A stretch of 64,000 nucleotides of DNA from an uncultured Actinomycetes bacterium (lineage in GTDB: Bacteria; Actinomycetota; Thermoleophilia; Gaiellales; Gaiellaceae), in the NCBI GenBank assembly GCA_963704005.1, contig CAVPGJ010000001.1:240345-304344 (forward strand), in the 5' to 3' direction. Of the stretch, positions 43,879-58,909 are shown piece after piece. The translations under genes and the position numbers were made by a program. Positions within the stretch are counted from its first letter, which is position 1. The number at the start of each line of letters is the position of its first letter. The notes below the pieces were generated by a model that saw nothing but the letters and a program-made list of their open reading frames with translations, did no database searches and was not told the DNA's origin.

Positions 43879-44604
43879 CTACATGCCGGGCTCGTGGTCG
43901 CCGACGTGGTTCGCCGGCACCTGCTCGACCTGGCCGAGCGAGGCGGCGGCCCGTGCGCGGATCCGCACCGAGATCCGGTCGCCGACGACGAGCTGGCTGG
44001 GCGAGATCAGCGTCGGGACGCCGCCCTGCCAGAGCACGAAGATGGTGTGCGAGTCGTAGCTGAAGGTCTGGTCGAGCGGCTGCCCCAGCATCCTCTGCAG
44101 CGCTCGCTGGTTCCCGTTCACGATGTGCAGCGTCAGCTGGCCGCCCGAGGCGGGCCCGTCGAGCTTGCCGACGAACAGCCAGAGCGGTTTGTGCGCGAAG
44201 CTCGGGTTCGGCCCGCGGTCGGCCACGCGTCCTGCTGCAGTCGCCTCGATCTGCGCCAGCGACGACCTTCGCGGCGACCGGACGCGGACGCTGACGCGGT
44301 CGCCGGCCACGAGGTTCGACTCCGGCACGACCGTGGGCACGCCGTTCGTCCAGCGGATGTACTGCGTGTTCTGCCCGACCGCGAACTGCTGGCTCTTGCC
44401 CTGGCCGACGAGCTTCTTGAGCGCGATGCGGTTGCCGCCGGAGATGTCGACGTAGAGCGTCGGCGAGCTGCCGGCGTCGGCCATGAGGTGGCCGTTGAAG
44501 ATGAAGAGCGCGCCGCCGCCGTTCCCAGCGGCGAAGGTGCTCGAGGCGCCCGCTGCGAGGACGGCGAGAGCAACGAGCGCGAGGGGGAGAAGTTGCCGTC
44601 TCAT
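43879..44604 (-). CDS. secreted protein with an internally duplicated ~95-aa domain
   Basis: ATG 44602-44604 is preceded by AGGAGG, followed by a signal peptide. The two halves align (..LYVDISGGNRIALKKLVGQ..VVPESNLVAGDRVSVRVRSP.. versus ..LTLHIVNGNQRALQRMLGQ..LISPSQLVVGDRISVRIRAR..). Confidence 0.65.
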   Translation of the reverse strand: MRRQLLPLALVALAVLAAGASSTFAAGNGGGALFIFNGHLMADAGSSPTLYVDISGGNRIALKKLVGQGKSQQFAVGQNTQYIRWTNGVPTVVPESNLVAGDRVSVRVRSPRRSSLAQIEATAAGRVADRGPNPSFAHKPLWLFVGKLDGPASGGQLTLHIVNGNQRALQRMLGQPLDQTFSYDSHTIFVLWQGGVPTLISPSQLVVGDRISVRIRARAAASLGQVEQVPANHVGDHEPGM

Positions 44605-44723
44605 CGTGATCCTCCTGATCGATGGTGATTCCGCGCTCATGGTCGCTTCGAGGTGTCAGGGGCCGATGTGCGGGCTGTAAGGCCTCGGTAAGCGGACGTA
44701 AGAAGTTGTGGGAAGATCCCGGC

Positions 44724-45633
44724 GTGGCCGTCGCCGACCGCGTCCAGGAAGGCTTCGTCCCGTTCCGCGGCGGCCGCACCTGGTACCGGTCGGTCGCGGC
44801 CGGGAGCGAGGACCCGGCGCGCCTGCCGCTCCTCTGCCTGCACGGCGGCCCGGGCGCGAACTGGCTGCACATGAAGCCCTACGAGGCGCTCGCGGACGAG
44901 CGGCGCGTCGTCTTCTACGACCAGCTCGGGTCGGGGAGCTCGGCGCTGGAGGAGCCGCACGACCCGTCGCTCTGGACGCCGGAGCTCTATGTCGAGGAGG
45001 TCGGCGTCGTGCGCGAGGCGCTCGGCCTCGAGCGCGTCCACGTCCTCGGCCACTCCTGGGGCGGGATGCTCGGGATGCAGTACGCACTCGGGTCAGCCCG
45101 ACGGGCTCGTCTCGCTGATCGTCGAGAGCTCGCCGCCGAGCGTGCCGGAGTGGATGCCGGAGGTCGCGCGCCTGCGCTCGGAGCTGCCGCCGGAGGTCGA
45201 CGCGACCCTGCGCCGGCACGAGGAGGCCGGCACGACCGACTCGCCCGAGTACGAGGAGGCGACGATGGTCTTCTACAAGCGCCACCTCTGCCGCGTCGAC
45301 CCGTGGCCCGACTGGCTGGTCGAGTGCTTCGAGCTCCTCGAGGCGAATCCGGAGGTCTACCACTCGATGAACGGCCCCAGCGAGTTCCACGTGATCGGCA
45401 CGATCAGGGACTGGGACATCACGCCGCGGCTCGGCCGGATCCAGGCGCCGACGCTCGTCTTCTCGGGCCGCTACGACGAGGTGACGCCGGCCTGCACCGA
45501 GGCGGCGCACCGCGCGATCCCCGGCTCCGAGTACGTCGTGCTCGAGGAGAGCTCGCACATGGCGCAGGCCGAGCAGCCGGACGAGACGCTCGCGCTCGTC
45601 CGAGACTTCATCGCGCGAGCCGAGTCGGACTAG
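44724..45633 (+). pseudogene. proline iminopeptidase-family alpha/beta hydrolase, apparent +1 frameshift at ~45090-45094
   Basis: GTG 44724. ...LHGGPGA...YDQLGSGSS...VLGHSWGGMLGMQYALG is in phase 0. QPDGLVSLIVESSPPS...SGRYDEVTP...VVLEESSHMAQ is in phase 1 (ORF 44989..45633). Confidence 0.8.
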
Positions 45634-45675
45634 CCCGCGGGACCTCTCTCGCGGCCACCGTCGTAGTGAGCGCAG

Positions 45676-46155
45676 ATGCGCAAATTCGCCGTGACCGGGT
45701 TGCTCGTCGCTCTCCTCTTCGTGCCCGCCGCCGCGGCGAGAGCTCCGACCCGGATCGACGTAGGCCACGGGATCAGCGCTGTGCTGCCGGCCGGCTGGCG
45801 GCTAGTCCACCGGCAGGTCACCGAGTGCAGCGACCCTGCGCAGCGGGTCGTCGCGACCGATGCGGGCGGGACGTTGCGGCCGGGGGCGCACGCCCCTACG
45901 CGCGCGGCGGTCGTACTCGTCATGGAGACGAGCCTCGGCGGCCGCTTTCCGGCACGCCCTGCACGTTTTCACCTACCGCATCTCGCGTCGAATATCGGAG
46001 GTTGCTGTGAGATGCCCTACGGTCCGGGCGCCGAGCTGCTCTTCCGCGACCACGGCCGCGAGTTCTACGCCTTCGTCTACCTCGGCCGTCGCTCGAAAGA
46101 CCGCTCCGCCGTGCTCGAGCTGCTGAACAGCCTGCGAATCTCGCCGAGCAGCTGA
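45676..46155 (+). CDS. secreted hypothetical protein
   Basis: 159 aa with signal peptide MRKFAVTGLLVALLFVPAAAA. No family recognised. Confidence 0.5.
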   Translation: MRKFAVTGLLVALLFVPAAAARAPTRIDVGHGISAVLPAGWRLVHRQVTECSDPAQRVVATDAGGTLRPGAHAPTRAAVVLVMETSLGGRFPARPARFHLPHLASNIGGCCEMPYGPGAELLFRDHGREFYAFVYLGRRSKDRSAVLELLNSLRISPSS

Positions 46156-46158
46156 CTG

Positions 46159-46317
46159 CTACTCCGGGTCCTGTTGCTTCGCCCGGAGCTCGGCGTCCTC
46201 GCGCTTCTTCGCCTTCCAGAAGATCCAGCAGATCACGCCGAGGACGACGAACGAGGTCGCCATCATCCCGACGATGACCGCGTCCAGCGCCGCCGCTCCG
46301 TGGTCGAGCAACAGCAT
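46159..46317 (-). CDS. small single-TMS protein, translationally coupled to arfB (TGATG)
   Basis: Internal ATG 46315-46317 of ORF 46159..46734. It has a hydrophobic core ...VIVGMMATSFVVLGVICWIFW followed by a charged tail. Confidence 0.4.
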   Translation of the reverse strand: MLLLDHGAAALDAVIVGMMATSFVVLGVICWIFWKAKKREDAELRAKQQDPE

Positions 46318-46725
46318 CAGTCGAGCTCCCGGCGCCGGCGCTTGAGCTCGCTGCGGCGTCGCTTCTGCTCGAGCCGGCGCTCGACCGCCGCCCGGCTCGG
46401 CTTCGTCGGCCGCCGCCGCCGTGGCACGAACAACGCCTCGCGCAGCGCCTCGACCAGGCGCTCGGTGGCGAGCTCGCGGTTGCGCCACTGGCTGCGCTCG
46501 TCCTGGGCGACCGCGCGGATGACTGGTCCCGCGCGCGCGAGGACCCTTCGCTTCTGCGCCTCCGTCAGCGACGGGGAGGCCTCGACGTCGAAGCTCGCCT
46601 CGACCCGCGTGTCGCTCTTCTGCGCGTGCTGGCCGCCCGGCCCGCTCGAGCGCGAGAAGCGCAGCTCGATCTCGCGAGCGCGGGATAGTGACCGAACGGG
46701 TTACCTGAATAGACTCGCGCTCCAT
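46317..46725 (-). pseudogene. arfB: alternative ribosome-rescue factor ArfB (peptidyl-tRNA hydrolase, GGQ), apparent +1 frameshift at ~46672-46677
   Basis: MERESIQVTRSVTIPRS is in one frame. EIELRFSRSSGPGGQHAQKSDTRVEASFDV...RSQWRNRELATERL...basic tail lies in the next frame, which has no start codon of its own and a TAA just upstream (46701-46703). Confidence 0.8.
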
Positions 46726-47499
46726 GGCCGCCATTCTCCTGGACGTGGACGGGGTGCTGCACGTGTCCGGCGCACCCGATCCTCGGCGGCGCCAAGGCGA
46801 TCGCCAAGCTGCGCGAGGCCGGCCACCGGCTGCGGTTCGTCACCAACAACACCACCGCACTCGCGGCAGGCGCTGGCCGACGAGATCCGCTCGTTCGGGG
46901 TCGAGCTCGACAACGAGGAGCTGCAGACGACGCCGATCGCCGCCGCACACGCGCTGGCCGGCAAGCGCGTCCTTGCGCTGACGATGCCCGCGATCGTCGA
47001 TGACCTCGAGGGCATCGAGCTGGTCGGCGAGGGCGCGGACGCCGTGCTGCTCGGCGGCGCCGACGAGGGCTTCGAGACCAACCGCGTCTTCAGCTACTAC
47101 AACCTCGCGCGCGCCTTCGCCGAGCTGCAGGAGGGCGCCGAGCTCTACTGCCTGCACAAGAACCGCTGGTGGCAGACCTCGCGCGGCGCCATGCTCGACG
47201 CGGGCGTGTACGTCGCGGGGCTCGAGTACGCGGCCGAGACAGAGGCGACGGTGCTCGGCAAGCCGAGCGCCGCCTACTTCGCCGCTGCGCTGGAGGTTCT
47301 CGACTACGACCCCGGGCAGACCTGGATGGTCGGCGACGACGTCGAGGCCGACATCGGCGGCGCCACTGCGTTCGGCCTGCGTAGCGTCCTCGTCCGCACC
47401 GGCAAGTACCGCGAGGAGGCGCTCGACGAGGCGACGGTCAAGCCCGACGGCGTGATCGACTCGATCGCCGCCCTTCCCGCTTGGCTGGAGGAACACTGA
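46724..47499 (+). pseudogene. HAD-IIA family hydrolase (NagD-like), two apparent +1 frameshifts
   Basis: MAAILLDVDGVLHVSGAP is in phase 2. ILGGAKAIAKLREAGHRLRFVTNNTT is in phase 0. HSRQALADEIRSFGV...GKPS...WMVGDD...GLRSVLVRTGK is in phase 1. Shifts are at ~46775-46779 and ~46854-46858. Confidence 0.8.
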
Positions 47500-47855
47500 G
47501 AGTCGGAGTGGACTTGATCGAGATCGAGCGGATCGCCCGCGCGCTCGAGCGCTACCCGGGCTTCCGCGAGCGCTGCTTCACCGAGAGGGAGCGCGCCTAC
47601 TGCGACTCGAAGCCGAACCCGCCGCAGCACTACGCCGCGCGCTTCGCCGGCAAGGAGGCGGTCGGCAAGGCACTCGGCTCGGGCATGAACTTCAACTGGC
47701 GAGAGGTCGAGATCGCCGGCCGGCCGAAGCCGGGCGTGACGCTGAGCGGGAAGACGAAGGCGTGGGCCGAGCGCGTGGGCGCCGGGGAGATCGACCTCTC
47801 GATGACCCACTCGCGCGAGCTCGCCCAGGCGGTCGCTCTCGTCGCCGATGCTTGA
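47481..47855 (+). CDS. acpS: holo-[acyl-carrier-protein] synthase
   Basis: VGVDLIEIERI...ERAYC......AARFAGKEAVGKALG.... Confidence 0.85.
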   Translation: MAGGTLRVGVDLIEIERIARALERYPGFRERCFTERERAYCDSKPNPPQHYAARFAGKEAVGKALGSGMNFNWREVEIAGRPKPGVTLSGKTKAWAERVGAGEIDLSMTHSRELAQAVALVADA

Positions 47856-49206
47856 ACCGCTCTACACCGCCGAGGAGATGAAGCAGGCCGAGGCGGGCCA
47901 CGACGTCGACGAGCTGATGGCCCGCGCGGGCCGGGTCGTGGCCGAGGAGGCGATGCGGCGCTTCCCGGAGGCGCGGCGCTTCGTCGCCATCTGCGGCGGT
48001 GGCGCGAACGGGGGCGACGGGCGGATCGCGGTCGACGTGATCGCCGCGGCGGGCCGCGAGGCGGTCGTGAGCGACGACGTCGAGGGCGCCGACGTGATCC
48101 TCGACGCGCTCTTCGGCACGGGCTTCCACGGCGAGCCGCGTGAGGACGCCGCGCGCAAGATCGACGCGATCAACGCGGCCCGGGCGCCGGTGGTCTCGGT
48201 CGACCTGCCCTCCGGCGTGGACGCCTCGACCGGCGAGGTCGCCGGAGCCTGCGTCGACGCGACCGTCACGGTGACGATGCACGGGCGCAAGGTCGGGCTC
48301 GAGGTCGCGCCGGGCCGCTTCCATGCGGGCGAGGTGGTCGTGGCCGACATCGGGCTCGAGCCCGCCGCAACCGAGCACCGGCTGGTCACGGCCGAGATCC
48401 TCGCGCAGGTGCCGCGCAAGCGCGCCGACCAGAACAAGTACTCGGCCGGGACGGTGCTGGTCGTCGGCGGCTCGCGCGGGCTGACCGGCGCGCCGAGCCT
48501 CGCCGCCGAGGCGGCCTTCCGCGCCGACGCGGGCTACGTCGCGGTCGCAGTGCCGGCCTCGACCCTGCCCGTGCTCGAGCAGCGCCTGCTCGAGGCGGTC
48601 AAGCTGGCCTGCCCCGAGGACGAGGGCCGCATCTCGCCGCGCGCGGTCGAGCCGATCGCCGAGTTCGCTCAGAAGGCCGGCGCGGTCGCGCTCGGGCCGG
48701 GGCTCGGGCGGGGCGAAGGCCCGCACGAGGTGGTCGCGCGGCTCCTTCACGAGCTCGACGTGCCGGCGGTCGTCGACGCCGACGGGCTCTTCGGCCTCGA
48801 GGTGTTCGAGCGCTCCGGCGAAACGGTGCTGACACCGCACGAGGGCGAGCTCGCGCGCCTGCTCGGCGAGGAGTCGAGCTGGGTCGCGGCGCACCGGCTC
48901 GAGGCCGCTCGCCGAGCGACGGAGCGCTTCGGGTGCGTCTGCCTGCTGAAGGGCGCCGACACGCTGGTCGCCGCGCCCGGCGAGGGCGTCTGGGTCTGCT
49001 CGCTCGGCACGCCGGCGCTCGCTACTGCGGGGAGCGGCGACGTCCTGACCGGGATCGTGGCCGCCTTCCTGGCGAAGGGGCTCGAGGCCCGCCTCGCGGC
49101 CGCGGCGGCAGCCATCGCCCACCAGCTCGCCTCGCGAGAGGTCCCGCAGGCCGGCGCCGTCGCGAGCGACCTGATCGGCGCGCTCCCGCTCGTGCTCGAC
49201 CGCTGA
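47848..49206 (+). CDS. nnr: bifunctional NAD(P)H-hydrate repair enzyme Nnr (epimerase/dehydratase)
   Basis: The YjeF_N part has ICGGGANGGDG. The C-terminal carbohydrate-kinase part has KYSAGTVLVVGGS..GAP...TPHEGE...LKGADT...GSGDVLTG. Confidence 0.88.
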   Translation: MLEPLYTAEEMKQAEAGHDVDELMARAGRVVAEEAMRRFPEARRFVAICGGGANGGDGRIAVDVIAAAGREAVVSDDVEGADVILDALFGTGFHGEPREDAARKIDAINAARAPVVSVDLPSGVDASTGEVAGACVDATVTVTMHGRKVGLEVAPGRFHAGEVVVADIGLEPAATEHRLVTAEILAQVPRKRADQNKYSAGTVLVVGGSRGLTGAPSLAAEAAFRADAGYVAVAVPASTLPVLEQRLLEAVKLACPEDEGRISPRAVEPIAEFAQKAGAVALGPGLGRGEGPHEVVARLLHELDVPAVVDADGLFGLEVFERSGETVLTPHEGELARLLGEESSWVAAHRLEAARRATERFGCVCLLKGADTLVAAPGEGVWVCSLGTPALATAGSGDVLTGIVAAFLAKGLEARLAAAAAAIAHQLASREVPQAGAVASDLIGALPLVLDR

Positions 49207-49209
49207 GCC

Positions 49210-49251
49210 GGTTCAGTCCATTCGAACCGATTGGTTCAGTTCCGTCGAACC
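49210..49251. promoter_or_regulatory. two tandem GGTTC-N9-GAACC palindromic boxes upstream of the ATPase gene
   Basis: GGTTCAGTCCATTCGAACC (49210-49228) and GGTTCAGTTCCGTCGAACC (49233-49251), 23 bp centre to centre, abutting the -10 element. Confidence 0.35.
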
Positions 49252-49253
49252 AG

Positions 49254-49264
49254 CTTGCTAGCGT
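49254..49264 (+). promoter_or_regulatory. candidate -10 region (CTTGCTAGCGT) for a leaderless ATPase-gene transcript
   Basis: Same 11-mer as 26233-26243. TAGCGT ends 6 nt before GTG 49271. Confidence 0.35.
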
Positions 49265-49270
49265 GAGGAC

Positions 49271-50413
49271 GTGGCCGACGTCAATCCCTTCGTCTACTCG
49301 CGACCGGTGGCGCCCGAGGACGTGCTCGACCGCGAGCCGGAGATCCGCCAGCTGCTCTCGCTGGCCGGCGGCGGGCACTACGTCCGCCTCTACGCGCCCC
49401 GGCGCTTCGGCAAGACGAGCCTCCTGCGCAAGGCGCTCGCCGAGGCCGCGCGCGGCGGCGAGCTCGTGCCCGTGCTCGTCGACCTCTACGGCGTGCTCAG
49501 CTTCGCCGACGTCACCATCCGGATCGAGCGGGCCTACGCGCACCTGCACGGCCCGATCCGCAAGACGATCGAGAGCATCCTGCGCACGACCGGGCTCGGG
49601 CTCTCGCTGGGCGCGCCGGGGATCTCGGTCAGGCTCCAGCTCGAGCCGCGGACCGACCCGCTGCCCGCGCTCCACGCGCTGCTCGACCTGCCGGAGCGCG
49701 TCGCCGAGCGCAGCGGCTCGCGTGTTCTCGTCGCGCTCGACGAGTTCCAGGACATCGTCAAGGTCGGCGACTTCGACAAGCTCCTCCGCAGCCACATCCA
49801 GCACCAGGGCGAGGTCGCCTCGTACATCTTCTGCGGCTCCGAGCCGGGGATGATGCGCGAGCTGTTCGACGTGAAGGGACGACCGCTCTACGGCCAGGCC
49901 GAGCCACTGCGGCTCGGCCGCCTTCCCGACGACGAGATCGCGGCCTACATCGCCGAGCGCTTCGCGCGCACCAGGCGCGGGGCCGACCGCGTCCTCGACG
50001 CGCTGCTCGCGACCGCAAGGGGGCATCCTCAGCGGGCGATGCTGCTGGCGCACCGGCTCTGGGACGAGGTCGCCCGCGGCAAGGCCGCGGACGAGGACGA
50101 CTGGCAGGCGGCGCTCGCGCGGACGCAGAACCAGGTCGCCGCCGAGTTCGACGCTCTCTGGCGCGGGCTGGAGGCCAACGAGCAGCGGGCCCTGCGGGCG
50201 GTCGCGCTCTTCCCCGACGCGCCCTACGGCGCCCGCGCTCTCGGCGCCGTCGACCTGAAGAAGTCGGGAGCGCACTACGCCGTGCGCTCGCTGCTGGCGA
50301 AGGGCGAGCTCGAGGAGGAGAACGGACGCACGGTCTTCGTCGACCCGCTCTTCGAGCTCTGGCTCCGCGACGTCCAGCAGGGCGGCGCGGGAGGCGAGGA
50401 TGCACCGGTCTGA
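49271..50413 (+). CDS. AAA-type ATP-binding protein (archaeal-ATPase / DUF234-like)
   Basis: Walker A APRRFGKTSLL and Walker B VLVALDEFQDI, with a C-terminal wHTH-like region. It is inserted between nnr and alr. Confidence 0.65.
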   Translation: MADVNPFVYSRPVAPEDVLDREPEIRQLLSLAGGGHYVRLYAPRRFGKTSLLRKALAEAARGGELVPVLVDLYGVLSFADVTIRIERAYAHLHGPIRKTIESILRTTGLGLSLGAPGISVRLQLEPRTDPLPALHALLDLPERVAERSGSRVLVALDEFQDIVKVGDFDKLLRSHIQHQGEVASYIFCGSEPGMMRELFDVKGRPLYGQAEPLRLGRLPDDEIAAYIAERFARTRRGADRVLDALLATARGHPQRAMLLAHRLWDEVARGKAADEDDWQAALARTQNQVAAEFDALWRGLEANEQRALRAVALFPDAPYGARALGAVDLKKSGAHYAVRSLLAKGELEEENGRTVFVDPLFELWLRDVQQGGAGGEDAPV

Positions 50414-51422
50414 GCTGACCGTCGACCTCGGCGCGATCCGGCGCAACGCGCGGACGCTGCTGCGCGTGCTCGACGGCTCGCAGCTCTGGGCGGTCGTCAA
50501 GGCGAACGCCTACGGCCACGGCGCGGTCGACGTCGCCGGCGCGGTCGTCGACGAGGGCGCCGGTGCGCTCTGCGTGGCCACCGTCGCCGAGGGGCTCGAG
50601 CTGCGCCTCGAGTTCCCGCTCGTCCGGATCCTCGTGATGGGGCCGACCGGCTCGAGCCGCGAGGTCGCCGAGGCACGGGAGGCCAAGCTCGAGCTCGCGG
50701 TGTGGGACGAGGAGCTTCCGGAGGGCGTTCGCGTCCACCTGAAGCTCGACACCGGTATGGGCCGCTGGGGGCTTTCCGAGCTGCCGACGCTCTCGGCCGA
50801 GGTCGTCGGCCTGATGACGCACCTGGCGACCGCCGACAGCGACCCGGCCTTCGCCGAGCAGCAGGTCGAGCGCTTCCGCGAGGCGACCGCGCCCTACTCC
50901 GACCTGATGCGCCACGCGGCCAACAGCGCCGCCGCGCTGCGGCTCCCCTCGTCGCACTTCGATGCCGCCCGCTGCGGGGTCGCGCTCTACGGCCTCTCGC
51001 CCTTCGGCGAGGATCCGGCCGTGGACGGGCTCGAGCCGGCGCTCTCCTGGCACAGCTACCTCGCGCAGGTGAAGCTGCTGCAGCCGGGCGAGAGCACGGG
51101 CTACGGGCGCCGCTTCGTCGCCGAGCGGCCGACCTGGATCGGGCTCGTGCCGGTCGGCTACGGCGACGGCTTCCGGCGCGACCTGACCGGGACGGAGGTG
51201 CGCGTCGGCGGCGAGCTTCGCCCGGTCGTCGGGACGGTCTCGATGGACGCCTTCGCGGTCGAGCTCGAGCACGAGGAGCCGGTCGGCGCGCCCGTGACGA
51301 TCCTCGGGCAGGGCGTCCTCGCCGAGTCGCACGCCGCCGTCGCGGGGACGATCAACTACGAGCTGCTGACCGGCGTCGTCTCCGACCCGCGGCGCGCGCG
51401 GCGGATGGTCGTCGATGCTTGA
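50400..51422 (+). CDS. alr: alanine racemase
   Basis: The PLP-Lys motif AVVKANAYGHG, ...HLKLDTGMGRWG..., and VGYGDG. Confidence 0.9.
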   Translation: MHRSELTVDLGAIRRNARTLLRVLDGSQLWAVVKANAYGHGAVDVAGAVVDEGAGALCVATVAEGLELRLEFPLVRILVMGPTGSSREVAEAREAKLELAVWDEELPEGVRVHLKLDTGMGRWGLSELPTLSAEVVGLMTHLATADSDPAFAEQQVERFREATAPYSDLMRHAANSAAALRLPSSHFDAARCGVALYGLSPFGEDPAVDGLEPALSWHSYLAQVKLLQPGESTGYGRRFVAERPTWIGLVPVGYGDGFRRDLTGTEVRVGGELRPVVGTVSMDAFAVELEHEEPVGAPVTILGQGVLAESHAAVAGTINYELLTGVVSDPRRARRMVVDA

Positions 51423-52452
51423 GACGCGCGCGGGAGGTGCTGGCGGGCGAGGAGGCGTGGGTCGTCGGCGGCGCCGTCCGCGACGAGCTGCTCGGCCGCG
51501 AGCTGGTCGACCTCGACATCGCCGTGCGCGACCCGGCCGGCGCGGCGCGGGCCTACGCGAAGCGCTCGGGCGGCGCGCCCTTCCCGCTCTCGGAGCGCTT
51601 CGGCGCCTGGCGGGTCGCGCTCGAGGACGGCCGCACCGTCGACTTCACGCCGCTCACAGAGCCGGTCGAGGACGACCTGGCCACGCGCGACTTCACGATC
51701 AACGCGATCGCCGCGCCCGCTGGCCGGCGGCGACGCCGTCGATCCGTTCGGCGGCGAGGAGGATCTCGCGCGCCGGCCGCCTGCGCGCCGTGCGCGAGTC
51801 GGTCTTCGACGACGACCCGCTGCGGCTGCTGCGCGCGGTCCGGCTCGAGGACGAGCTCGACTTCCGGCTCGACGAAGAGACCGAGCGCCTGGTGCGCGAG
51901 CATGCCGCCCTCGTCACGCGGCCGGCGGGCGAGCGGATCCTCGCCGAGCTGCGCCGGCTCTCGGCCGGCGGCTACCGGCGGCTCGACGAGCTCGGGCTGC
52001 TGGAGCCGCTCGGCGGGTCGATCGACCGACCGGCTCGACCGCGTCGACTCGCCCGACTACCGGCTCGTCGCCGTCGTTCGGCGACAACCTGCGCCGGCTG
52101 CCGGTCTCGAACGAGCTGCGCCGCTACGCGCGGGTGCTGCTGCGCGCCGAGCGCGCCGGAAGGCGACGCGCGCTCGATCCACCGCTTCCGCCGCGCGACC
52201 GAGCCGTGGGCGCTCGACGCGCTCGCCTTCCTCGGCGCCGGCGAGCTGGCTGGAGCGGTCGAGGAGGCGCGCCGCGCCGACCCGGCAGAGCCGCTCGTCC
52301 GCGGCGACGAGCTCGGCCTGCCGCCCGGCCCGGAGATCGGCCGCCTGCTGGACGAGATCGCCGAAGAGCGGGCGGCGGGTACGATCGCCACCAAAGAGGA
52401 GGCGCTCGACTATGCACGACGCAACGCGCGAGCGGTTCGGCAGGACGGCTGA
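51419..52452 (+). pseudogene. cca: CCA tRNA nucleotidyltransferase / poly(A) polymerase family, five apparent +1 frameshifts
   Basis: TTG 51419 (TTGA overlap with alr). Segments: ..AWVVGGAVRDELLGRELVDLDIAV..RDFTINAIAAP (phase 2); LAGGDAVDPFGGEEDLAR (0); GRLRAVRESVFDDDPLRLLRAVRLE...LGLLEPLGGS (1); DRLDRVDSPDYRLVAV (2); FGDNLRRLPVSNELRRYARVLLRAER (0); PEGDARSIHRFRRATEPW...GPEIGRLLDEI (1). Shifts are at ~51719, ~51772, ~52026, ~52076 and ~52155. Confidence 0.8.
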
Positions 52453-53115
52453 GCGGATAGCAGAGCATCAGGACGCACAGGCGGCCGAGCTCGAACCCCG
52501 GATCGTCCGCTTCGTGGCCCCCACGGGCGACGAGCGCGCGCTCGACTCCGGCACCGGCACGGGCGCGCTCGCCTTCGCGCTCGCGCCGCACGTTCGCGAG
52601 GTGGTCGGCGTCGACCTCGTCCCCGAGCTGCTGGAGCAGGCGCGGAAGCGGGTCGGGCAGGTCCCGAACGTCACGCTTCGCCGAGGGCGATGCGACCGCG
52701 CTTCCGTTCGGCTACGGCGAGTTCGACCTGGCCGGAACGCTGCGCACGCTTCCACCACCTCGCGCGGCCGGAGCTGGCGATGGCCGAGCTGGTGCGCGTC
52801 ACCCGCGCGGGCGGGCGGCTGCTCGTGATCGACCAGATCGCGCCGGTCGACCCGGCCGCCGCCGCCGAGCTGAACCGCTTCGAGCAGGCCCGCGACCCCA
52901 CGCACACGAGGACGCTCGCCGACGTCGACCTGCGCGGCCTGTTCGAGTCGAACGGTCTCGTCCTCCTGCGCGCCGAGTACGAGCGCGAGCCGCGCGAGCT
53001 CGACCCGTACCTCGACCTCGCCGGCTGCGAGGGCGAGGCCCGCGAGCGCGCGAAGACGCTCGCCCCGCGCGGCTACACCGCCGACATCGGCTGGTACCTG
53101 CTCGAGAAGCGCTAG
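52412..53115 (+). pseudogene. class I SAM-dependent methyltransferase, two apparent +1 frameshifts
   Basis: MHDATRERFG...ALDSGTGTGALAFAL..VVGVDLVPELLEQAR..NVTL is in phase 2. AEGDATALPFGYGEFDLAGTLRT is in phase 0. FHHLARPELAMAELVRVTRAGGRLLVID... is in phase 1 (ORF 52690..53115). Shifts are at ~52676-52680 and ~52746-52750. Confidence 0.75.
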
Positions 53116-53330
53116 CCGGCGAGAGCGGCGCGCACTTCGCCGTCCTCAGGGAAGCGCCCGGTCTCCGCCTTCGAGAAGACGAGCCTACCGTCGGCGAGCA
53201 CGTCGTACTGGCCCTTGCTGCCCGGGATCGCCTCGGCGTCGTGCCCCTCGTTCCCCAGCTCGGCCGCGAGACTCGCGGCCCGTGTGTCGTAGCCGCTTCA
53301 GGTGGGGCAGTAGAAGATCTCGACGCGCAT
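53112..53330 (-). CDS. Rdx (SelW/SelT/SelH-like) family redox protein with in-frame TGA in a CxxU motif; candidate selenoprotein
   Basis: Own translation: MRVEIFYCPT-[TGA 53298-53300]-SGYDTRAASLAAELGNEGHDAEAIPGSKGQYDVLADGRLVFSKAETGRFPEDGEVRAALAG*. Family-typical blocks lie on both sides of the TGA. About 90% of codons after the TGA are GC3-ending. It is not in the ORF track. Confidence 0.65.
53262..53280 (-). other. SECIS-like stem-loop (GGCCGCGA-GUC-UCGCGGCC) downstream of the in-frame UGA
   Basis: The 8-bp GC stem starts 18 nt after the UGA. The apical loop begins with G. The position is within the range described for bacterial SECIS elements. Confidence 0.4.
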
Positions 53331-53336
53331 CGGCAC

Positions 53337-53753
53337 TCAGACCTCGAGGGGCGTGCCTCGGAGAGACGAGAACGCATCGAGCAGCGCCTGGCGCTCGGCC
53401 TCGTTGGTGGTGAACGACCGCTCCAGCCGCCGCTCGCCCTCGGGCGTCAGGCGCAGGAACGCGACCCGCCCGTCGTCGGGAGAGCGCTCGCGCTGGAGGA
53501 GGCCGACCTCCTCGGCCCGGCGGACGAGCTCCGTGACCGTCGACTGCGCGAGCTGCAGGCGCTCGGCGAGCTCCGTCACCGTCGACTTGCCGCTCTTGTC
53601 CTCGGCGCCCTTGATCATCAGGAGCAGCACGTAGCGCTGCGGCGTCAGGCCGGCGGCGCGGGCATTGCGCTCGGTGGTGCGCAGGAAGCGCCGCAGCGCG
53701 GCCCGGAACTCGGCGACGCGGGCGACCTCCTCGGTGCTGAGCCGGTCGGCCAT
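53337..53753 (-). CDS. MarR family transcriptional regulator
   Basis: ATG 53751-53753 inside the chimeric ORF 53337..58085. ...TVTELAERLQLAQSTVTELVRRAEEVGLLQRERSPDDGRVAFLRLTPEG (wHTH). Confidence 0.85.
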   Translation of the reverse strand: MADRLSTEEVARVAEFRAALRRFLRTTERNARAAGLTPQRYVLLLMIKGAEDKSGKSTVTELAERLQLAQSTVTELVRRAEEVGLLQRERSPDDGRVAFLRLTPEGERRLERSFTTNEAERQALLDAFSSLRGTPLEV

Positions 53754-53763
53754 GGCTCGATTG

Positions 53764-53929
53764 TAGTGCCCAGTCCAGCAATACATGCCGGCCTCTGGCC
53801 CGCGATCACGCGGCGCCAGAGCCCACCCTTGCCCTTGGCAAGGCAGACCAGCCTTGCTGCGGGCAAGTGCGAACTCTGGCTTGGAGCTCGCGACCCAGAG
53901 ACTCGGCGGCATTACTGGACTGGGCACTA
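53764..53929. repeat. 166-bp nested palindromic element (terminal 19-bp inverted repeats enclosing four hairpins)
   Basis: Terminal repeats are TAGTGCCCAGTCCAGCAAT (53764-53782) and ATTACTGGACTGGGCACTA (53911-53929), matching 18/19. Internal hairpins lie at 53793-53821, 53827-53843, 53851-53870 and 53874-53900. The left and right halves are imperfect inverted copies. Confidence 0.45.
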
Positions 53930-54689
53930 GTCCCCCGAGGGACGGACTCCTCGCGCGCCGGCCCAGGCGACCAGCCCGGGGACGATCGCCTGCGCCAGCG
54001 GAGCGATCCGGTAGAAGCGCGGGACGACCACCTCGCGGCGGTCGTGCTCGACCGCGGCGACGATCCGCTCGGCGATCAGCTCGGGCTCGGCGATCAGCGT
54101 GCGGAGGAAGCGGTTCGAGAAGCGCGAGCGCTGCGGGAACCCCGGCGTCTCCACGAATCCCGGGCAGGACGGTGTGCACGCGGATCCCGAGCGGCTGCAG
54201 CTCGGCCCGGGTCGCGCGCGAGAACGCGAGCTGCGCGTGCTTCGAGGCGGTGTACGGCCCGGCCGAGCCCGAGGCGACGGTGCCGGCGACCGAGACGACG
54301 TTGACGACGTCCGATGGCGCCGCCGCCCGGAGCAGCGGCAGGAAGGCACGCAGGCACCAGACAGAGCCGAGGTAGTTCGTCCGCGTCACCTGCTCGATCG
54401 TCTCGGGTGATGCGCGCAGGAAGCCGCCGCGGCCGGGGATCCCAGCGTTGTTGACGAGCAGGGCGAGCTTCGGGTGGCGCTCCGCGATCGCGGCGGCCGC
54501 CCGCTCGACCGCCTCGCGGTCGCCGACGTCGCAGCGCTCCCACTCCGCGCCGAGCGGCTCCGCGGCCGAGCGCAGGCGCTCCTCGTCGCGGCCGACGAGC
54601 ACGCAGCTCCAGCCCCGTTCGACGAGCTTCCGGGCGGTGGCGGCCCCGATCCCGCTCGAGCCGCCCGTAATGACCGCTATCTGTGACAC
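53927..54689 (-). pseudogene. SDR family oxidoreductase, apparent +1 frameshift at ~54155-54161
   Basis: GTG 54687-54689. VITGGSSGIGAATA...NNAG...YTASKHAQLAFS...IRVHTVLPG is in one frame. FVETPGFPQRSRF...RIVAAVEHDRREVVVP is in the next (ORF 53927..54349). Confidence 0.8.
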
Positions 54690-57600
54690 ACGCGGACGAC
54701 CTGCCGCGCCTGCGAATGCGCGCCCTTGCGGTCGGTCACGACCGCGCGCAGCACGTGCCGCCCGTGGGCCGCCTTGCCTGCGTGCCAGACGGCGGAGTAG
54801 AGCCCGAAGAAGCCGGCCCGCTGGGTCGAGATCCTGTGGCGGCCGACGTAGAAGGCGACCTTCCGGACCTGCTTCGGCGAGCCGGCGCTCACGATCAGCG
54901 ACTCCGTCTTGGCGACGCAGGCGTTGCGGCTCGGCAGCAGCCAGTTCACGACCGGCCTGGCGACGGCGCGCAGCCGCACCTGCTTGAAGGCGGTGTTCGG
55001 AAGGATGTTCGCGCCCGCCTGGTCGACGTTCTTCGACTCCTGGTAGTCGGAGCCGACCGCGATCGCAGCGGTCTTGCCGACCGGGATCTTCGGCGCGCCG
55101 TCCAGCAGCCAGACCGCGAGGCCGGAGCCCGGGTCGTAGAAGGCCGCGAGCAGGAGGATGCCCCGGTAGCCGACGACGAGCGAGAGTGGGTCGACCCCGG
55201 CGCCGTTGTCCTTGACGATCGCCGCCAGCGCGGGCCGGCCGGAGCTGACGCGCGCCGTCAGGAAGCGCATCCGCGGCGGCGTGACGTCGTTCTGCCAGAA
55301 GTGGAGCCGGTACGGCCCGGCCAGGCTCTGGTCGGTGAACGGGTCCGCGCGCGAGTCGACCGCGACGAAGTAGCGGCCCTCGTGCGGGAACTCGAGCCCG
55401 GCGGCCTGGTTGTCGAACTGGTACTCGAAGGTCAGCCCGTTCACGTTCACCGGTGTGCCCGGGTAGCCCTGGACGTCGTCCTCGTTCAGCGAGCCGAGGA
55501 ACCACGGTTCGGGCAGCGCGTTGAGCCCCTCGGCCGTGATGGCGGCGCCGGCGTTCGCGATGTGCGTGTTCACGTGGACGGCGTAGACGTGCTCGGCGCC
55601 CGACTCGTGCATCCCGGGACCGGTGTAGCTCGGCGGCGGGCCGAACGGGAAGGACGGGAAGCGGTACACGTCGACGAAGTCGGTGCCCTTGCTCGTGTCG
55701 CCGAGCTGGCTGCGCTTGATCACGACCTGCGGCGCATGGCCGATCTGCGGCAGGACGACCGAGAAGTAGTACGGGCACGCGGATCCGGTCGGCGCCCCGC
55801 GTGAAGACGACGAAGCCGGTGTTGTCGCCGCGCGGCGAGAGCTTCGGCGCGGCCGCGACGATCGGCACGTCGACCGTCCCGCCGGGCGGCACGGTCACGA
55901 TCGCGGCCTCCGGCGTGACCGACGCGCCCGAGCTCGCGGACTGCGCGTCGATCGAGACCGTCCAGGCGCCCGCGCCGCCGCCGGCGTCGCTGAGCGAGAC
56001 GAACAGCGGCTTGCGCGCACCCGCGTTGGCGGTGTTCAGGAAGCCGAACGAGAGCGAGCTCGGATTGGCGAAGAGCTTCGGGCTGTTCGCCGTGGCCACG
56101 TTGACGAGGCCGGCTCCTTCCAGCAGCACCGAGGCCTCCTGCGTGCGGGCCGTGTTGCCCCAGGCCGGGCCGGCGGTCGTCATCAGGGCCGACTTGACCT
56201 GCTGCGGCGTCCAGGCCGGATGCTGCTGGAGCAGCAGCGCCGCCGAGCCGGAGACGTGCGGGGCCGACATGCTCGTCCCGTCGAAGACCGCGAAGTTCGA
56301 GCCGGCGAACTCGGTGAGCGTCGAGGAGAGGATCTGCCCGCCGGGCGCGGCCAGGTCGGGCTTGAGCGCGTGGGTGAAGTTGGTCGGGCCCGCGGACGAG
56401 AAGCTGGTGACGATCCCGCTGCGGCCGGTCTGGATCTCGAGCGGGTTGTTCTGGCCGGTCGCGCGGAAGGTCGTGCGGCCGGCGTGCGCGTCAATGAACG
56501 CCCGCAGGTTGGCGCCGTCGAGGTCGGAGATCATCCCGCCGGGGATGGCGAGCAACTCGGGGATGAAGTTCGCCTCGCCGAAGCGGTTGTCGACGAAGAT
56601 GACCCCGGTGCCGCCGGCGTGCTGGATCCGTTCGACCTTCGAGTCGAAGGTGCAGCCCCCGCGCGAGACGAGCGCGACCAGGCCGCCGAGCGAGCCGGGC
56701 GGAAGCGTCGACTTCGTGCCGTCGTTCGGGTCGAAGCCCGCGGGTGCGCACAGCTGCCGGTCGACCGGGTGCCCGTCGGTGCCGGTGATCGTGCCGACGT
56801 CCTGCAGCAGCTGGTCGAACTGCTGCCAGCCCGGCGGGACCTGGAGGTTGTACGAGAACGGGATGTGCTGGGCGTTCGCGGGCGCCCCGGCGGCGGTGTC
56901 GGTGATCTCCGGGCCGAAGACGTGCAGGTTCGAGACGGCCGCGACCGAGATCGCGTCAGGTGCGTTGCTGGGCGAGCCGACCGAGCCGAGGCCGAAGTCG
57001 TCGCGGTCGTTCCCGGCCGAGATCACCGGCACGACGCCCGCGGCGGCGACGTTGTCGGCCGCCTCGATCAGCGCGTCGTTGGCCGGATCGACCTCGGGCC
57101 CGCCGCCGGAGAAGTTGAGCACGTTCATGCCGTCGCTCACGACCGTCTCGTAGGCCTCGACGATCTGCGGTGTGAAGGCGTCGTAGCCGCCGGTCAGCAC
57201 CGGCGCGTTGAAGACGCGGTAGTTCCCCAGCCAGGCGCGCGGCGCGATCCCGGAGAGCCCGGTCACGAGCGGGTGGTCGGGCCCGGGCCCGGCGATCGTC
57301 CCCTGGACGCCGGCCGCGATCCCCGACACGTGCGTGCCGTGGAACGACTGGGTGCGGACGAGCGGGAGCTTGCCGAGCTTCCCCGACCCCGGCCCCGGGA
57401 AGGATCTGGCGACGATCACCTTCGGCGTCGTGAACTTCGTGTTCCCCTTCGGGAAGCCGGCCGGGTACGAGAAGCCGTTCGGGTTGAAGAACGGGTTCGT
57501 CTGGTCGATCCCGTCGTCGACGACGCCGATCTTGATCCCCTGCCCGAAGCCGCCGGTGTTCGCCCAGAACTGGTCGGCGTGGATCACCGAGGGGCTCTTG

Positions 57601-58085
57601 TTCGTGTCGAGGTGGTAGCCGAGGCTCGGGTAGACCTTCTTGACGGCCTGCAGGCGCGCGAGCGTCGGCAGGGCGCGGTAGGGGAGGCGGAGCGCGAAGC
57701 CGTCGAGGACGATCCGGTAGCGGAGGCCGATGCGCGCCTGCGGGATCGCGTGCCGGATCTGCGCGACCGCCTGGGCCTGCAGGCGGGCGAGGTGGGCGAG
57801 GTAGGCGCGCGAGGTCGCGCTGTGGACGTTCAGCGGGTGGCGCTGCCCGGCGGCTTCGAGCCCGTGCCCGTAGGCGACCGCGAGCGGCGGCGCCTGCAGG
57901 TCGACGATCACCGTCACCCGGCCGGACGCGTGGCCGGCGGGGATGCGGATCACACCGTGCCGGATCCGCGGCAGCACGTGATCGCCGGCGCGCGGGAGCC
58001 GAATGCGCTCCAGCTTCGCGGAGGCTGAGGCGGCTGTGAGGAAGAGCGCCGCGGGAAGGACGAGAAAGACGAGTGCGCGGCGCAA
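54677..58085 (-). pseudogene. secreted S8 (subtilisin-like) serine peptidase with PA-domain insert and long C-terminal region, apparent +1 frameshift at ~55769-55775
   Basis: TTG start plus signal peptide. Catalytic triad contexts are VGVVDDGID, HGTHVSG and GTSMSAPHVSG. ...RGADRIRVP is in one frame and YYFSVVLPQIGHAPQVVIKRS... (ORF 54677..55723) is in the next. Confidence 0.85.
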
Positions 58086-58128
58086 GGCCGCTCAGAGTAG
58101 CGGAGAATCGCCGTAGACTCGACTCGTC

Positions 58129-58909
58129 GTGGACGGTGCATTCGCAGGCAAACGCGGTCTCGTGCTCGGCGTCGCCAACCGCCGCTCGATCGCGTGGGCG
58201 ATCGCGAGCAGGCTCGCCGCCGGCGGCGCCGAGCTGGCCTTCACCTTCCAGGGCGAGCGGATCGAGAAGAACGTCCGCGAGCTGGCCGAGTCGGTCGGCT
58301 CGCCGCTCGTCACGGCCTGCGACGTGCGCTCCGACGAGGACCTCGAGCGCGTCTTCGGCGAGGTCGGCGAGGCCTTCGACGGCGGGCTCGACCTGCTCGT
58401 CCACTCGGTCGCCTACGCGGCGGCCGAGGATCTCGAGGGCCGCTTCACCGACACGCCGCGCGACCGCTTCTGGATGGCGCTCGACGTCTCGGCCTACTCG
58501 CTGGTCGCCTGCGCGCGCCTGGCCGAGCCGCTGCTGGAGGCGCGCGGCGGGGGCTCGATCCTGACCATGACCTACCTCGGCGGCGAGCGGGCGGTGCCGC
58601 ACTACAACGTGATGGGCGTGGCCAAGTCGACGCTGGACTCGTCGCGTGCAGTACCTCGCCTGGGACCTCGGCCAGAAGAACATCCGCGTCAACGCGATCT
58701 CGGCCGGGCCGGTGCGCACGCTGGCCGCGCGCTCGATCGCCGGCTTCCCGACGATGGAGGCGATCGTCGAGGAGCGCTCGCCCCTGCACCGCCCGATCGA
58801 CGCCGACGACGTCGGCGCAGCCGCCGCGTACCTGCTCTCGGACGACGCGAAGAACGTGACCGGGACGACGCTCTACGTCGACTCGGGGTACCACGCGATG
58901 GGTATGTAG
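58129..58909 (+). pseudogene. fabI: enoyl-[acyl-carrier-protein] reductase (NADH) FabI, apparent +1 frameshift at ~58642-58646
   Basis: GLVLGVANRRSIAW...HSVAYA...MGVAKSTLDSS is in phase 1. VQYLAWDLGQKNIRVNAISAGPVRTLAA...LYVDSGYH is in phase 2 (ORF 58646..58909). Confidence 0.88.

Follow-up and report, generated by a model that had tools for sequence, protein, structure and literature searches.

Within a 64,000-nt stretch of DNA from an uncultured Actinomycetes bacterium of the Gaiellaceae (contig CAVPGJ010000001.1; the whole stretch is called the window below), we analysed a small, uncalled minus-strand gene at 53112..53330 that lies between a gene for a MarR-family regulator and a convergent methyltransferase gene and whose reading frame meets TGA at its eleventh codon. 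The evidence set out below leads us to regard it, with high though not full confidence, as a genuine SelW-like CxxU selenoprotein gene (U, selenocysteine or Sec) of the Rdx family that carries a functional bacterial selenocysteine insertion sequence (SECIS). The gene and its predicted parts are the following:

53112..53330, minus strand: complete predicted coding sequence of an Rdx/SelW-like selenoprotein, 72 codons plus stop, product MRVEIFYCPT-U-SGYDTRAASLAAEL...GRFPEDGEVRAALAG
53328..53330, minus strand: start codon ATG, which opens the 72-codon frame
53298..53309, minus strand: redox motif C8-P-T-U11, encoded by TGC CCC ACC TGA
53298..53300, minus strand: in-frame UGA, codon 11, predicted to specify selenocysteine
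53262..53280, minus strand: predicted bacterial SECIS hairpin inside codons R17-A23, with an 8-bp stem (GGCCGCGA/UCGCGGCC) and the apical loop GUC at 53272..53270
53112..53114, minus strand: stop codon TAG, which shares 2 nt with the stop, also TAG, that ends the convergent methyltransferase gene

Translation with read-through of the TGA gave a 72-residue peptide identical to the one predicted in an earlier note on this DNA, which had been made from the letters alone and had proposed here an uncalled CxxU gene of the Rdx/SelW type in which an in-frame TGA for Sec is followed by a SECIS-like hairpin. The elements of that proposal were recovered as described there: the minus-strand ATG, the TGA at codon 11 and the 72-codon read-through frame occupy the positions listed above, the hairpin with its 8-bp stem and GUC loop is present at 53262-53280, and the gene directly follows the MarR gene, whose TGA stop lies 6 nt before the Rdx ATG. 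The Rdx reading frame is unbroken on both sides of the TGA, and 55 of the 61 codons that follow it end in G or C, a count that the note had put at about 55. Its further claim that family-like sequence flanks the TGA on both sides agrees with comparisons to profile hidden Markov models (HMMs), for which U was read as C in the full product. The full product matched Pfam Rdx (PF10262) at E = 5.8e-13 and 49.3 bits (cut-off 22.6), while the 61 residues after the TGA passed the same cut-off by themselves (E = 1.5e-8, 35.2 bits), and the NCBIfam model TIGR02174 (SelT/SelW/SelH) was passed as well (43.8 versus a cut-off of 34.2), so that the curated cut-offs of both family models were exceeded. The NCBIfam equivalog NF041051 (SelTWH_Campy) scored 65.3 bits against a cut-off of 88, which makes the protein a relative and not a member of that group. 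Sequence matches in the PDB were all to Rdx proteins, namely MIEN1 (2ljk, the top match at E = 3.7e-5), Atu0228 (2fa8) and a SelW-related protein (2p0g). Taken as a whole, the core of the earlier proposal is thus supported by the HMM comparisons, by the orthologues and by the hairpin.

Gaiellales are an abundant, largely uncultured aerobic soil lineage of the Actinomycetota. When the GTDB species were scanned, each represented by one genome, at least 533 relatives turned up, and we analysed the best 80 loci, which come from metagenome-assembled genomes of Gaiellales, Gaiellaceae or Thermoleophilia and share 65-90% protein identity; with the window they give 81 sequences. None of the 80 loci comes from the genome of the window itself, the best match being L001 at 90% identity, and two of them (L009 and L016) lie on the complete chromosomes OY970250.1 and OY970337.1. 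Asked whether codon 11 is TGA or TGC/TGT, the orthologues gave TGA in 80/80 loci (81/81 with the window), and the Cys codon of the motif is TGC in all 81. The sequence around the TGA is conserved on either side, with VEIxYCP[TV] leading up to it and GYDxRAASLAAEL following, and the peptide after the TGA has thus been kept throughout the relatives. At the aligned start position we found GTG in 58/81 and ATG in 17/81 sequences; since this position is fixed as GTG/ATG, the ten-codon N-terminus before the UGA is conserved too. TGA also serves as a stop nearby, ending the MarR gene, 20 of the 48 long coding-like ORFs (open reading frames) in the window and 22 of the 81 Rdx genes, and is therefore not generally reassigned in this genome. 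The only non-TGA exceptions are two homologues on single short metagenome contigs, both with an intact hairpin: one (L083:607-828) has TGT (Cys) in place of TGA together with changes in two neighbouring codons, and the other (L084:454-669) has TCA (Ser). As far as their sequences tell, these two are either recent Sec-to-Cys/Ser conversions or sequencing errors.

Downstream of the UGA the mRNA can form the hairpin GGCCGCGA-GUC-UCGCGGCC (53280..53262), whose stem begins at the 18th nt past the UGA, which folds on its own at -14.7 kcal/mol and which is also contained in the minimum free energy (MFE) structure predicted for the 66 nt that follow the UGA. The published model of the bacterial SECIS (bSECIS) places an apical loop of 3-9 nt on a stem of 4-16 bp, with G in the first two loop positions and then usually G or U, a distance of 16-37 nt from UGA to loop and an MFE of -7.5 kcal/mol or lower (PMC13188914, Fig. 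2A). With its 3-nt GUC loop, 8-bp stem, UGA-to-loop distance of 25 nt and the folding energy given above, the hairpin agrees with this model in 4/4 respects. Its core, GCGAGUCUCGC, is identical at the nucleotide level in 81/81 sequences, even at synonymous positions and in AGT, a rare codon for serine. Synonymous entropy is accordingly 0 bits at A19 (GCG), S20 (AGT) and L21 (CTC) in all 81, compared with 1.1-1.8 bits where the gene encodes Ala, Ser or Leu elsewhere; at Ser53, AGT never occurs. Two stem pairs that join third-codon positions do vary: pair 21:39 is GC in 69 sequences, AU in 9, CG in 1, GU in 1 and unpaired in 1, and pair 24:36 is CG in 70, UG in 4, UA in 2, GU in 1 and unpaired in 4. 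The compensatory changes among these are GC to AU (9), GC to CG (1) and CG to UA (2). Across the stem alignment 98.1% of cells are paired, versus 24-51% when the 3' partners were slid, and RNAalifold returned the hairpin as the sole consensus structure. The freezing of synonymous sites is the main argument for the predicted hairpin, ahead of covariation, and the comparative evidence carries more weight than the fold itself. Judged by this comparison of sequences, the putative SECIS is under selection at the RNA level and fits the published bSECIS model.

We also scanned the window and all 80 loci for further selenoprotein genes, taking as signs an in-frame TGA flanked on either side by coding bias and a hairpin of the bSECIS type; this uncovered a second candidate family, a peroxiredoxin of the AhpC/TSA type (PF00578, E = 8e-26) of about 155 residues. 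It reads FYLFDWS[SA]T-TGA-TxE[ML]ELLRDR, with the TGA at the position of the peroxidatic Cys in 15/15 loci and a hairpin 21 nt downstream (GCUCCUG-CGUGA-CAGGAGC) that uses the rare Arg codons CGT and AGG. These genes lie as follows:

L003:851-1306, L004:2200-2655, L007:2339-2794 and L019:597-1025, plus strand: peroxiredoxin gene with TGA
L026, L027, L033, L042, L043, L044, L049, L056, L057, L076 and L079, minus strand: peroxiredoxin gene with TGA, 6-9 kb from the Rdx gene

The same scan found no TGA-containing peroxiredoxin in the window, and all other recurrent candidates that it returned were off-frame artefacts of GC-rich DNA. That the same genomes contain two unrelated families of thiol oxidoreductases in which TGA takes the place of the catalytic residue is a classic comparative signature of selenocysteine decoding.

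For the structure we modelled P0013, the closest natural Cys homologue (62% identical), as a stand-in for the window protein. The AlphaFold2 model of P0013 had a predicted local distance difference test score (pLDDT) of 93.4 and contained the elements E2-8, H13-28, E32-38, E44-48, E51-55 and H65-72 (E, strand; H, helix), a thioredoxin-like b-a-b-b-b-a order. Thioredoxin-fold proteins carry their redox motif between b1 and a1, and in the P0013 model the position of the CxxU motif falls between b1 (2-8) and a1 (13-28). Foldseek retrieved as best PDB matches of the P0013 model the SelW-related structures 2p0g, 2obk and 2fa8, with template modelling (TM) scores of 0.81-0.87, followed by mouse SelW and thioredoxins. 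The gene at 53112..53330 thus most likely encodes a 72-residue thioredoxin-fold Rdx (SelW/SelT/SelH) protein with a predicted Cys8-Pro-Thr-Sec11 motif.

In the mechanism that we propose, the Rdx mRNA would probably be co-transcribed with the upstream MarR gene, as the MarR stop only 6 nt before the Rdx ATG makes likely, and would be translated from the ATG at 53330. When a ribosome reaches UGA-11, the hairpin 17 nt downstream, in codons 17-23, would act as a bacterial SECIS and recruit SelB.GTP.Sec-tRNA(Sec), so that selenocysteine would be inserted and termination avoided. The protein would then work as a small thiol-selenol oxidoreductase that alternates between a selenolate/thiol state and a selenenylsulfide joining Cys8 to Sec11. 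For the presence of selA, selB, selC and selD, the insertion of Sec, the co-transcription with MarR and the biochemical role, this scheme is what we infer.

The two neighbours of the Rdx gene in the window are:

53337..53753, minus strand: MarR-family regulator gene, 138 aa without Cys (PF12802 and PF01047)
52412..53115, plus strand, convergent: gene for a class-I S-adenosylmethionine-dependent methyltransferase (Methyltransf_11, UbiE-like), spread over three reading frames in the window

NCBIfam supplied no equivalog-level name for either the MarR protein or the methyltransferase. The TAG stops of the Rdx and methyltransferase genes overlap in a CTAG palindrome (53112-53115), with no spacer or terminator between the genes. 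A scan of 52300-54100 for promoter and terminator consensus sequences found nothing, a null result that is uninformative in an actinobacterium of 71.5% GC. Among the 80 loci a MarR gene adjoins the Rdx gene in 31 and a methyltransferase gene in 38, and two layouts recur. In one, MarR and Rdx run in the same direction and converge on the methyltransferase gene; it occurs in the window and 17 loci (including L001-L005, L007-L009, L012, L013, L015-L019 and L022). In the other, the methyltransferase and Rdx genes run in the same direction and converge on MarR (14 loci: L014, L026-L028, L031, L033, L037, L042-L044, L049, L054, L056 and L058). From these two layouts it appears that the Rdx gene, about 220 bp long, was inverted in place between its convergent neighbours during the evolution of the Gaiellales.

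Several genes around Rdx are broken in the window. The methyltransferase frames join near 52677-52696 and at 52750, whereas of the 38 loci in which this gene adjoins Rdx, 37 gave a single intact high-scoring segment pair, and the rebuilt protein matched the full PF08241 profile at E = 2.4e-21. Genes for a CCA-adding enzyme, a short-chain dehydrogenase/reductase (SDR), an S8 peptidase and others (about 44-59 kb) are likewise split, compared with intact ORFs in L001, L002, L004 and L008. The breaks fall at 51718-51769, around 54135-54166 and 55764-55777, and at 58644-58646, 46709-46858 and 45061-45095, about one per 1-2 kb across approximately 44600-58900. An apparent ORF of 1582 aa at 53337..58085 is spurious and results from the fusion of three genes. 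The indels suggest either assembly errors, perhaps of an unpolished long-read assembly, or real gene decay.

A number of results weigh against a working selenoprotein gene at this locus. In the 66-nt context the hairpin had a pair probability of just 0.5-0.66, and a single-sequence fold of 71 nt gave a different MFE structure without it (z = -0.1), so single-sequence folding alone is unconvincing. Most stem pairs are invariant and the covariation comes from two pairs in related sequences; the covariation is therefore modest. Rfam gave no hit in the window at gathering thresholds and, around the gene at E <= 10, just chance-level hits, none of them to a SECIS family. Bacterial SECIS models in Rfam are family-specific, which makes this null result uninformative. 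ARAGORN detected no tRNA-Sec in the 64-kb window or the 80 loci, and tblastn with E. coli SelA, SelB and SelD (NC_000913) found none of the three in the window or across 1.4 Mb of flanking sequence from the orthologous loci, a search space made up of 80 loci with up to 20 kb each, the rest of those genomes lying outside it. A 91-nt 'tRNA-Pro(cgg)' called by ARAGORN at L080:6568-6658 on the minus strand is probably a false positive in GC-rich, coding-like DNA and is not tRNA-Sec; it differs from the ordinary 76-nt tRNA-Pro(cgg) that several loci have near Rdx. The many frame breaks in neighbouring genes cast doubt on the base-level quality of the window; because the reading frame of Rdx itself is intact and 80 other genomes share the TGA, they do not undermine the finding. 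Finally, literature searches yielded no report of a selenoprotein for Gaiellales, Thermoleophilia or Conexibacter.

The failure to find Sec machinery in the window or the 1.4 Mb of flanks would also suit a lineage in which such machinery does not work and UGA-11 is read through without selenocysteine, the hairpin promoting insertion of a near-cognate residue or of Cys or Trp to give a CxxC- or CxxW-type Rdx protein, and the TGT and TCA singletons, with their hairpins intact, indicate that non-Sec versions do arise. Yet the hairpin resembles the SelB-type bSECIS model in the GU of its loop, its stem length and its spacing, these genomes contain another, unrelated redox family with TGA exactly at its catalytic Cys, and were Cys inserted, frequent replacement of TGA by TGC or TGT would be expected, of which there is none among the 80 species; we give this possibility a slim chance. 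That the TGA is a true stop, created by a nonsense mutation in a pseudogene or by a sequencing error and leaving a 10-residue peptide or nothing, might be thought of in view of the frameshifted neighbours, with the methyltransferase in three frames and the CCA-adding enzyme, SDR and S8 peptidase in two each, all intact in relatives. It has next to no probability in our estimate: the same codon is TGA in 80/80 independent genomes, the coding bias persists downstream of it, and the part after the TGA passes the Pfam cut-off alone in a frame that is uninterrupted on both sides. On the sequence comparison, the conservation of TGA in 81/81 has effectively refuted a true stop already. Translation could instead begin at an internal start past the TGA, with the first ten codons acting as a leader peptide and the hairpin as an attenuator or translational-coupling element, and about 50 database entries have indeed been called from such starts, with lengths of 47-56 aa. 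The internal starts called differ between homologues, however, in being L, V or M at different positions, a product begun at any of them would lack strand b1 and the CxxU motif and so have an incomplete Rdx fold, and VEIxYCP is as well conserved as the rest of the protein behind a start position that is fixed as GTG/ATG, all of which makes an internal start very improbable.

A different question is what the MarR gene does beside Rdx. The earlier note had suggested a redox-sensing regulator/effector pair, in which an oxidised MarR would de-repress the selenoprotein, and the 6-nt gap between the two same-strand genes in the window, their adjacency in 31/80 loci (co-directional in 17) and the appearance of OhrR among the weak best NCBIfam matches of MarR (37.9 bits, far under the cut-off of 200) speak for it. 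This suggestion is not supported, since MarR contains no Cys in the window protein and 30 orthologues (31/31), which excludes thiol-based redox sensing of the OhrR/MgrA type. Moreover, 49 loci have no MarR neighbour, in 14 of the 31 loci that do have one Rdx stands behind the methyltransferase gene and points convergently at MarR, and neither an operator nor a promoter came to light. We thus consider a redox-sensing pair unlikely; ligand-dependent regulation of a MarR-Rdx operon is possible where the genes are arranged as in the window.

The predicted selenoprotein gene has well-documented counterparts. Bacterial SelW-like selenoproteins have been known since 2005 and make up one of the 25 selenoprotein families listed for bacteria; Sec-using organisms have very few Cys homologues of them, and in the Sargasso Sea data their CxxU form, with 48 genes, outnumbered every other selenoprotein family (PMC1088965, PMC1794560). 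Like those proteins, the one predicted here is small and thioredoxin-like, has its CxxU right after b1 and few close Cys homologues (PMC1088965, PMC1794560), and its Sec UGA would lie near the N-terminus with the SECIS hairpin directly downstream in the coding region. It differs from catalogued SelW-like proteins in its soil Gaiellales host, its CP[TV]U motif, its position at the short end of the family, the clade-specific invariant core GCGAGUCUCGC and the linkage to a Cys-less MarR and a UbiE-like methyltransferase. The solved Cys-type Rdx proteins of Vibrio cholerae (2p0g), Pseudomonas fluorescens (2obk), Agrobacterium (Atu0228, 2fa8) and Streptomyces (SAV_2001, 3dex) have the same fold with the motif in the same place, the P0013 Cys-homologue model aligning with solved Cys-type structures at TM 0.81-0.87 and a root-mean-square deviation of 1.6-2.3 Å, but they carry CxxC instead of CxxU, were deposited at about 100-108 residues and are 20-32% identical. 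The eukaryotic SelW (mouse, 2npb) and MIEN1 (2ljk) are homologous in fold and in the position of CxxU/CxxC, whereas eukaryotic SelW relies on a SECIS in the 3' untranslated region with SBP2/eEFSec and not on an in-ORF hairpin with SelB. In E. coli fdhF the apical sequence GGUC is closed by A-U and resembles the A-GUC-U of the Rdx hairpin. Compared with SECIS elements of the fdhF type, the hairpin here has a minimal 3-nt loop (5 nt if the A-U pair opens), no evident bulged U and a UGA-to-loop distance of 25 nt; it shares with them and with the bSECIS model the location in the ORF 3' of the UGA, a small loop with G then U, and a spacing and stability within range (PMC13188914).

The gene has been miscalled in a consistent manner, and the public calls for its homologues are in keeping with the earlier note's statement that no listed ORF covers the interval. 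Public calls of homologues comprise about 50 fragments of 47-56 aa with varying internal starts past the TGA, and the full-length public homologues (L085:476-697; P0001-P0012) have W or G at the Sec position. In P0001 the W at this position corresponds to the TGA, and a true TGA stop is read as W as well. The W and G appear because the gene caller chose a genetic code in which TGA is sense for the contig; these calls are a systematic annotation artefact from selenoprotein genes on short contigs. IMG labels shortened homologues "selT/selW/selH-like putative selenoprotein". The gene, its motif, the predicted in-ORF SECIS and the missed calling are all typical of the known SelW-like family, and what is new is modest: the host lineage, the clade-specific SECIS core, the MarR/methyltransferase linkage and the companion, predicted Sec-peroxiredoxin.

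A broader scheme, which we put forward tentatively and hold to be rather unlikely, is that Gaiellales keep Sec decoding mainly for a minimal selenoproteome of Rdx and the Sec-peroxiredoxin, with Rdx belonging to a three-gene module with MarR and the UbiE-like methyltransferase in which its orientation has flipped; the three might share a function, for example in the handling of quinones, selenium or small molecules, with MarR sensing a ligand. The finding leaves the current understanding of selenoproteins unchanged. The invariant peptide RAASLAAE appears to be fixed partly by the hairpin that encodes it, an instance of an in-ORF SECIS constraining protein sequence, and the annotation problem extends over a major soil lineage, in which it concerns at least 533 species representatives. 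If the Sec machinery is confirmed, Gaiellales/Thermoleophilia would count among the Sec-using bacteria, with two or more selenoprotein families, which would bear on the selenium ecology of soils.

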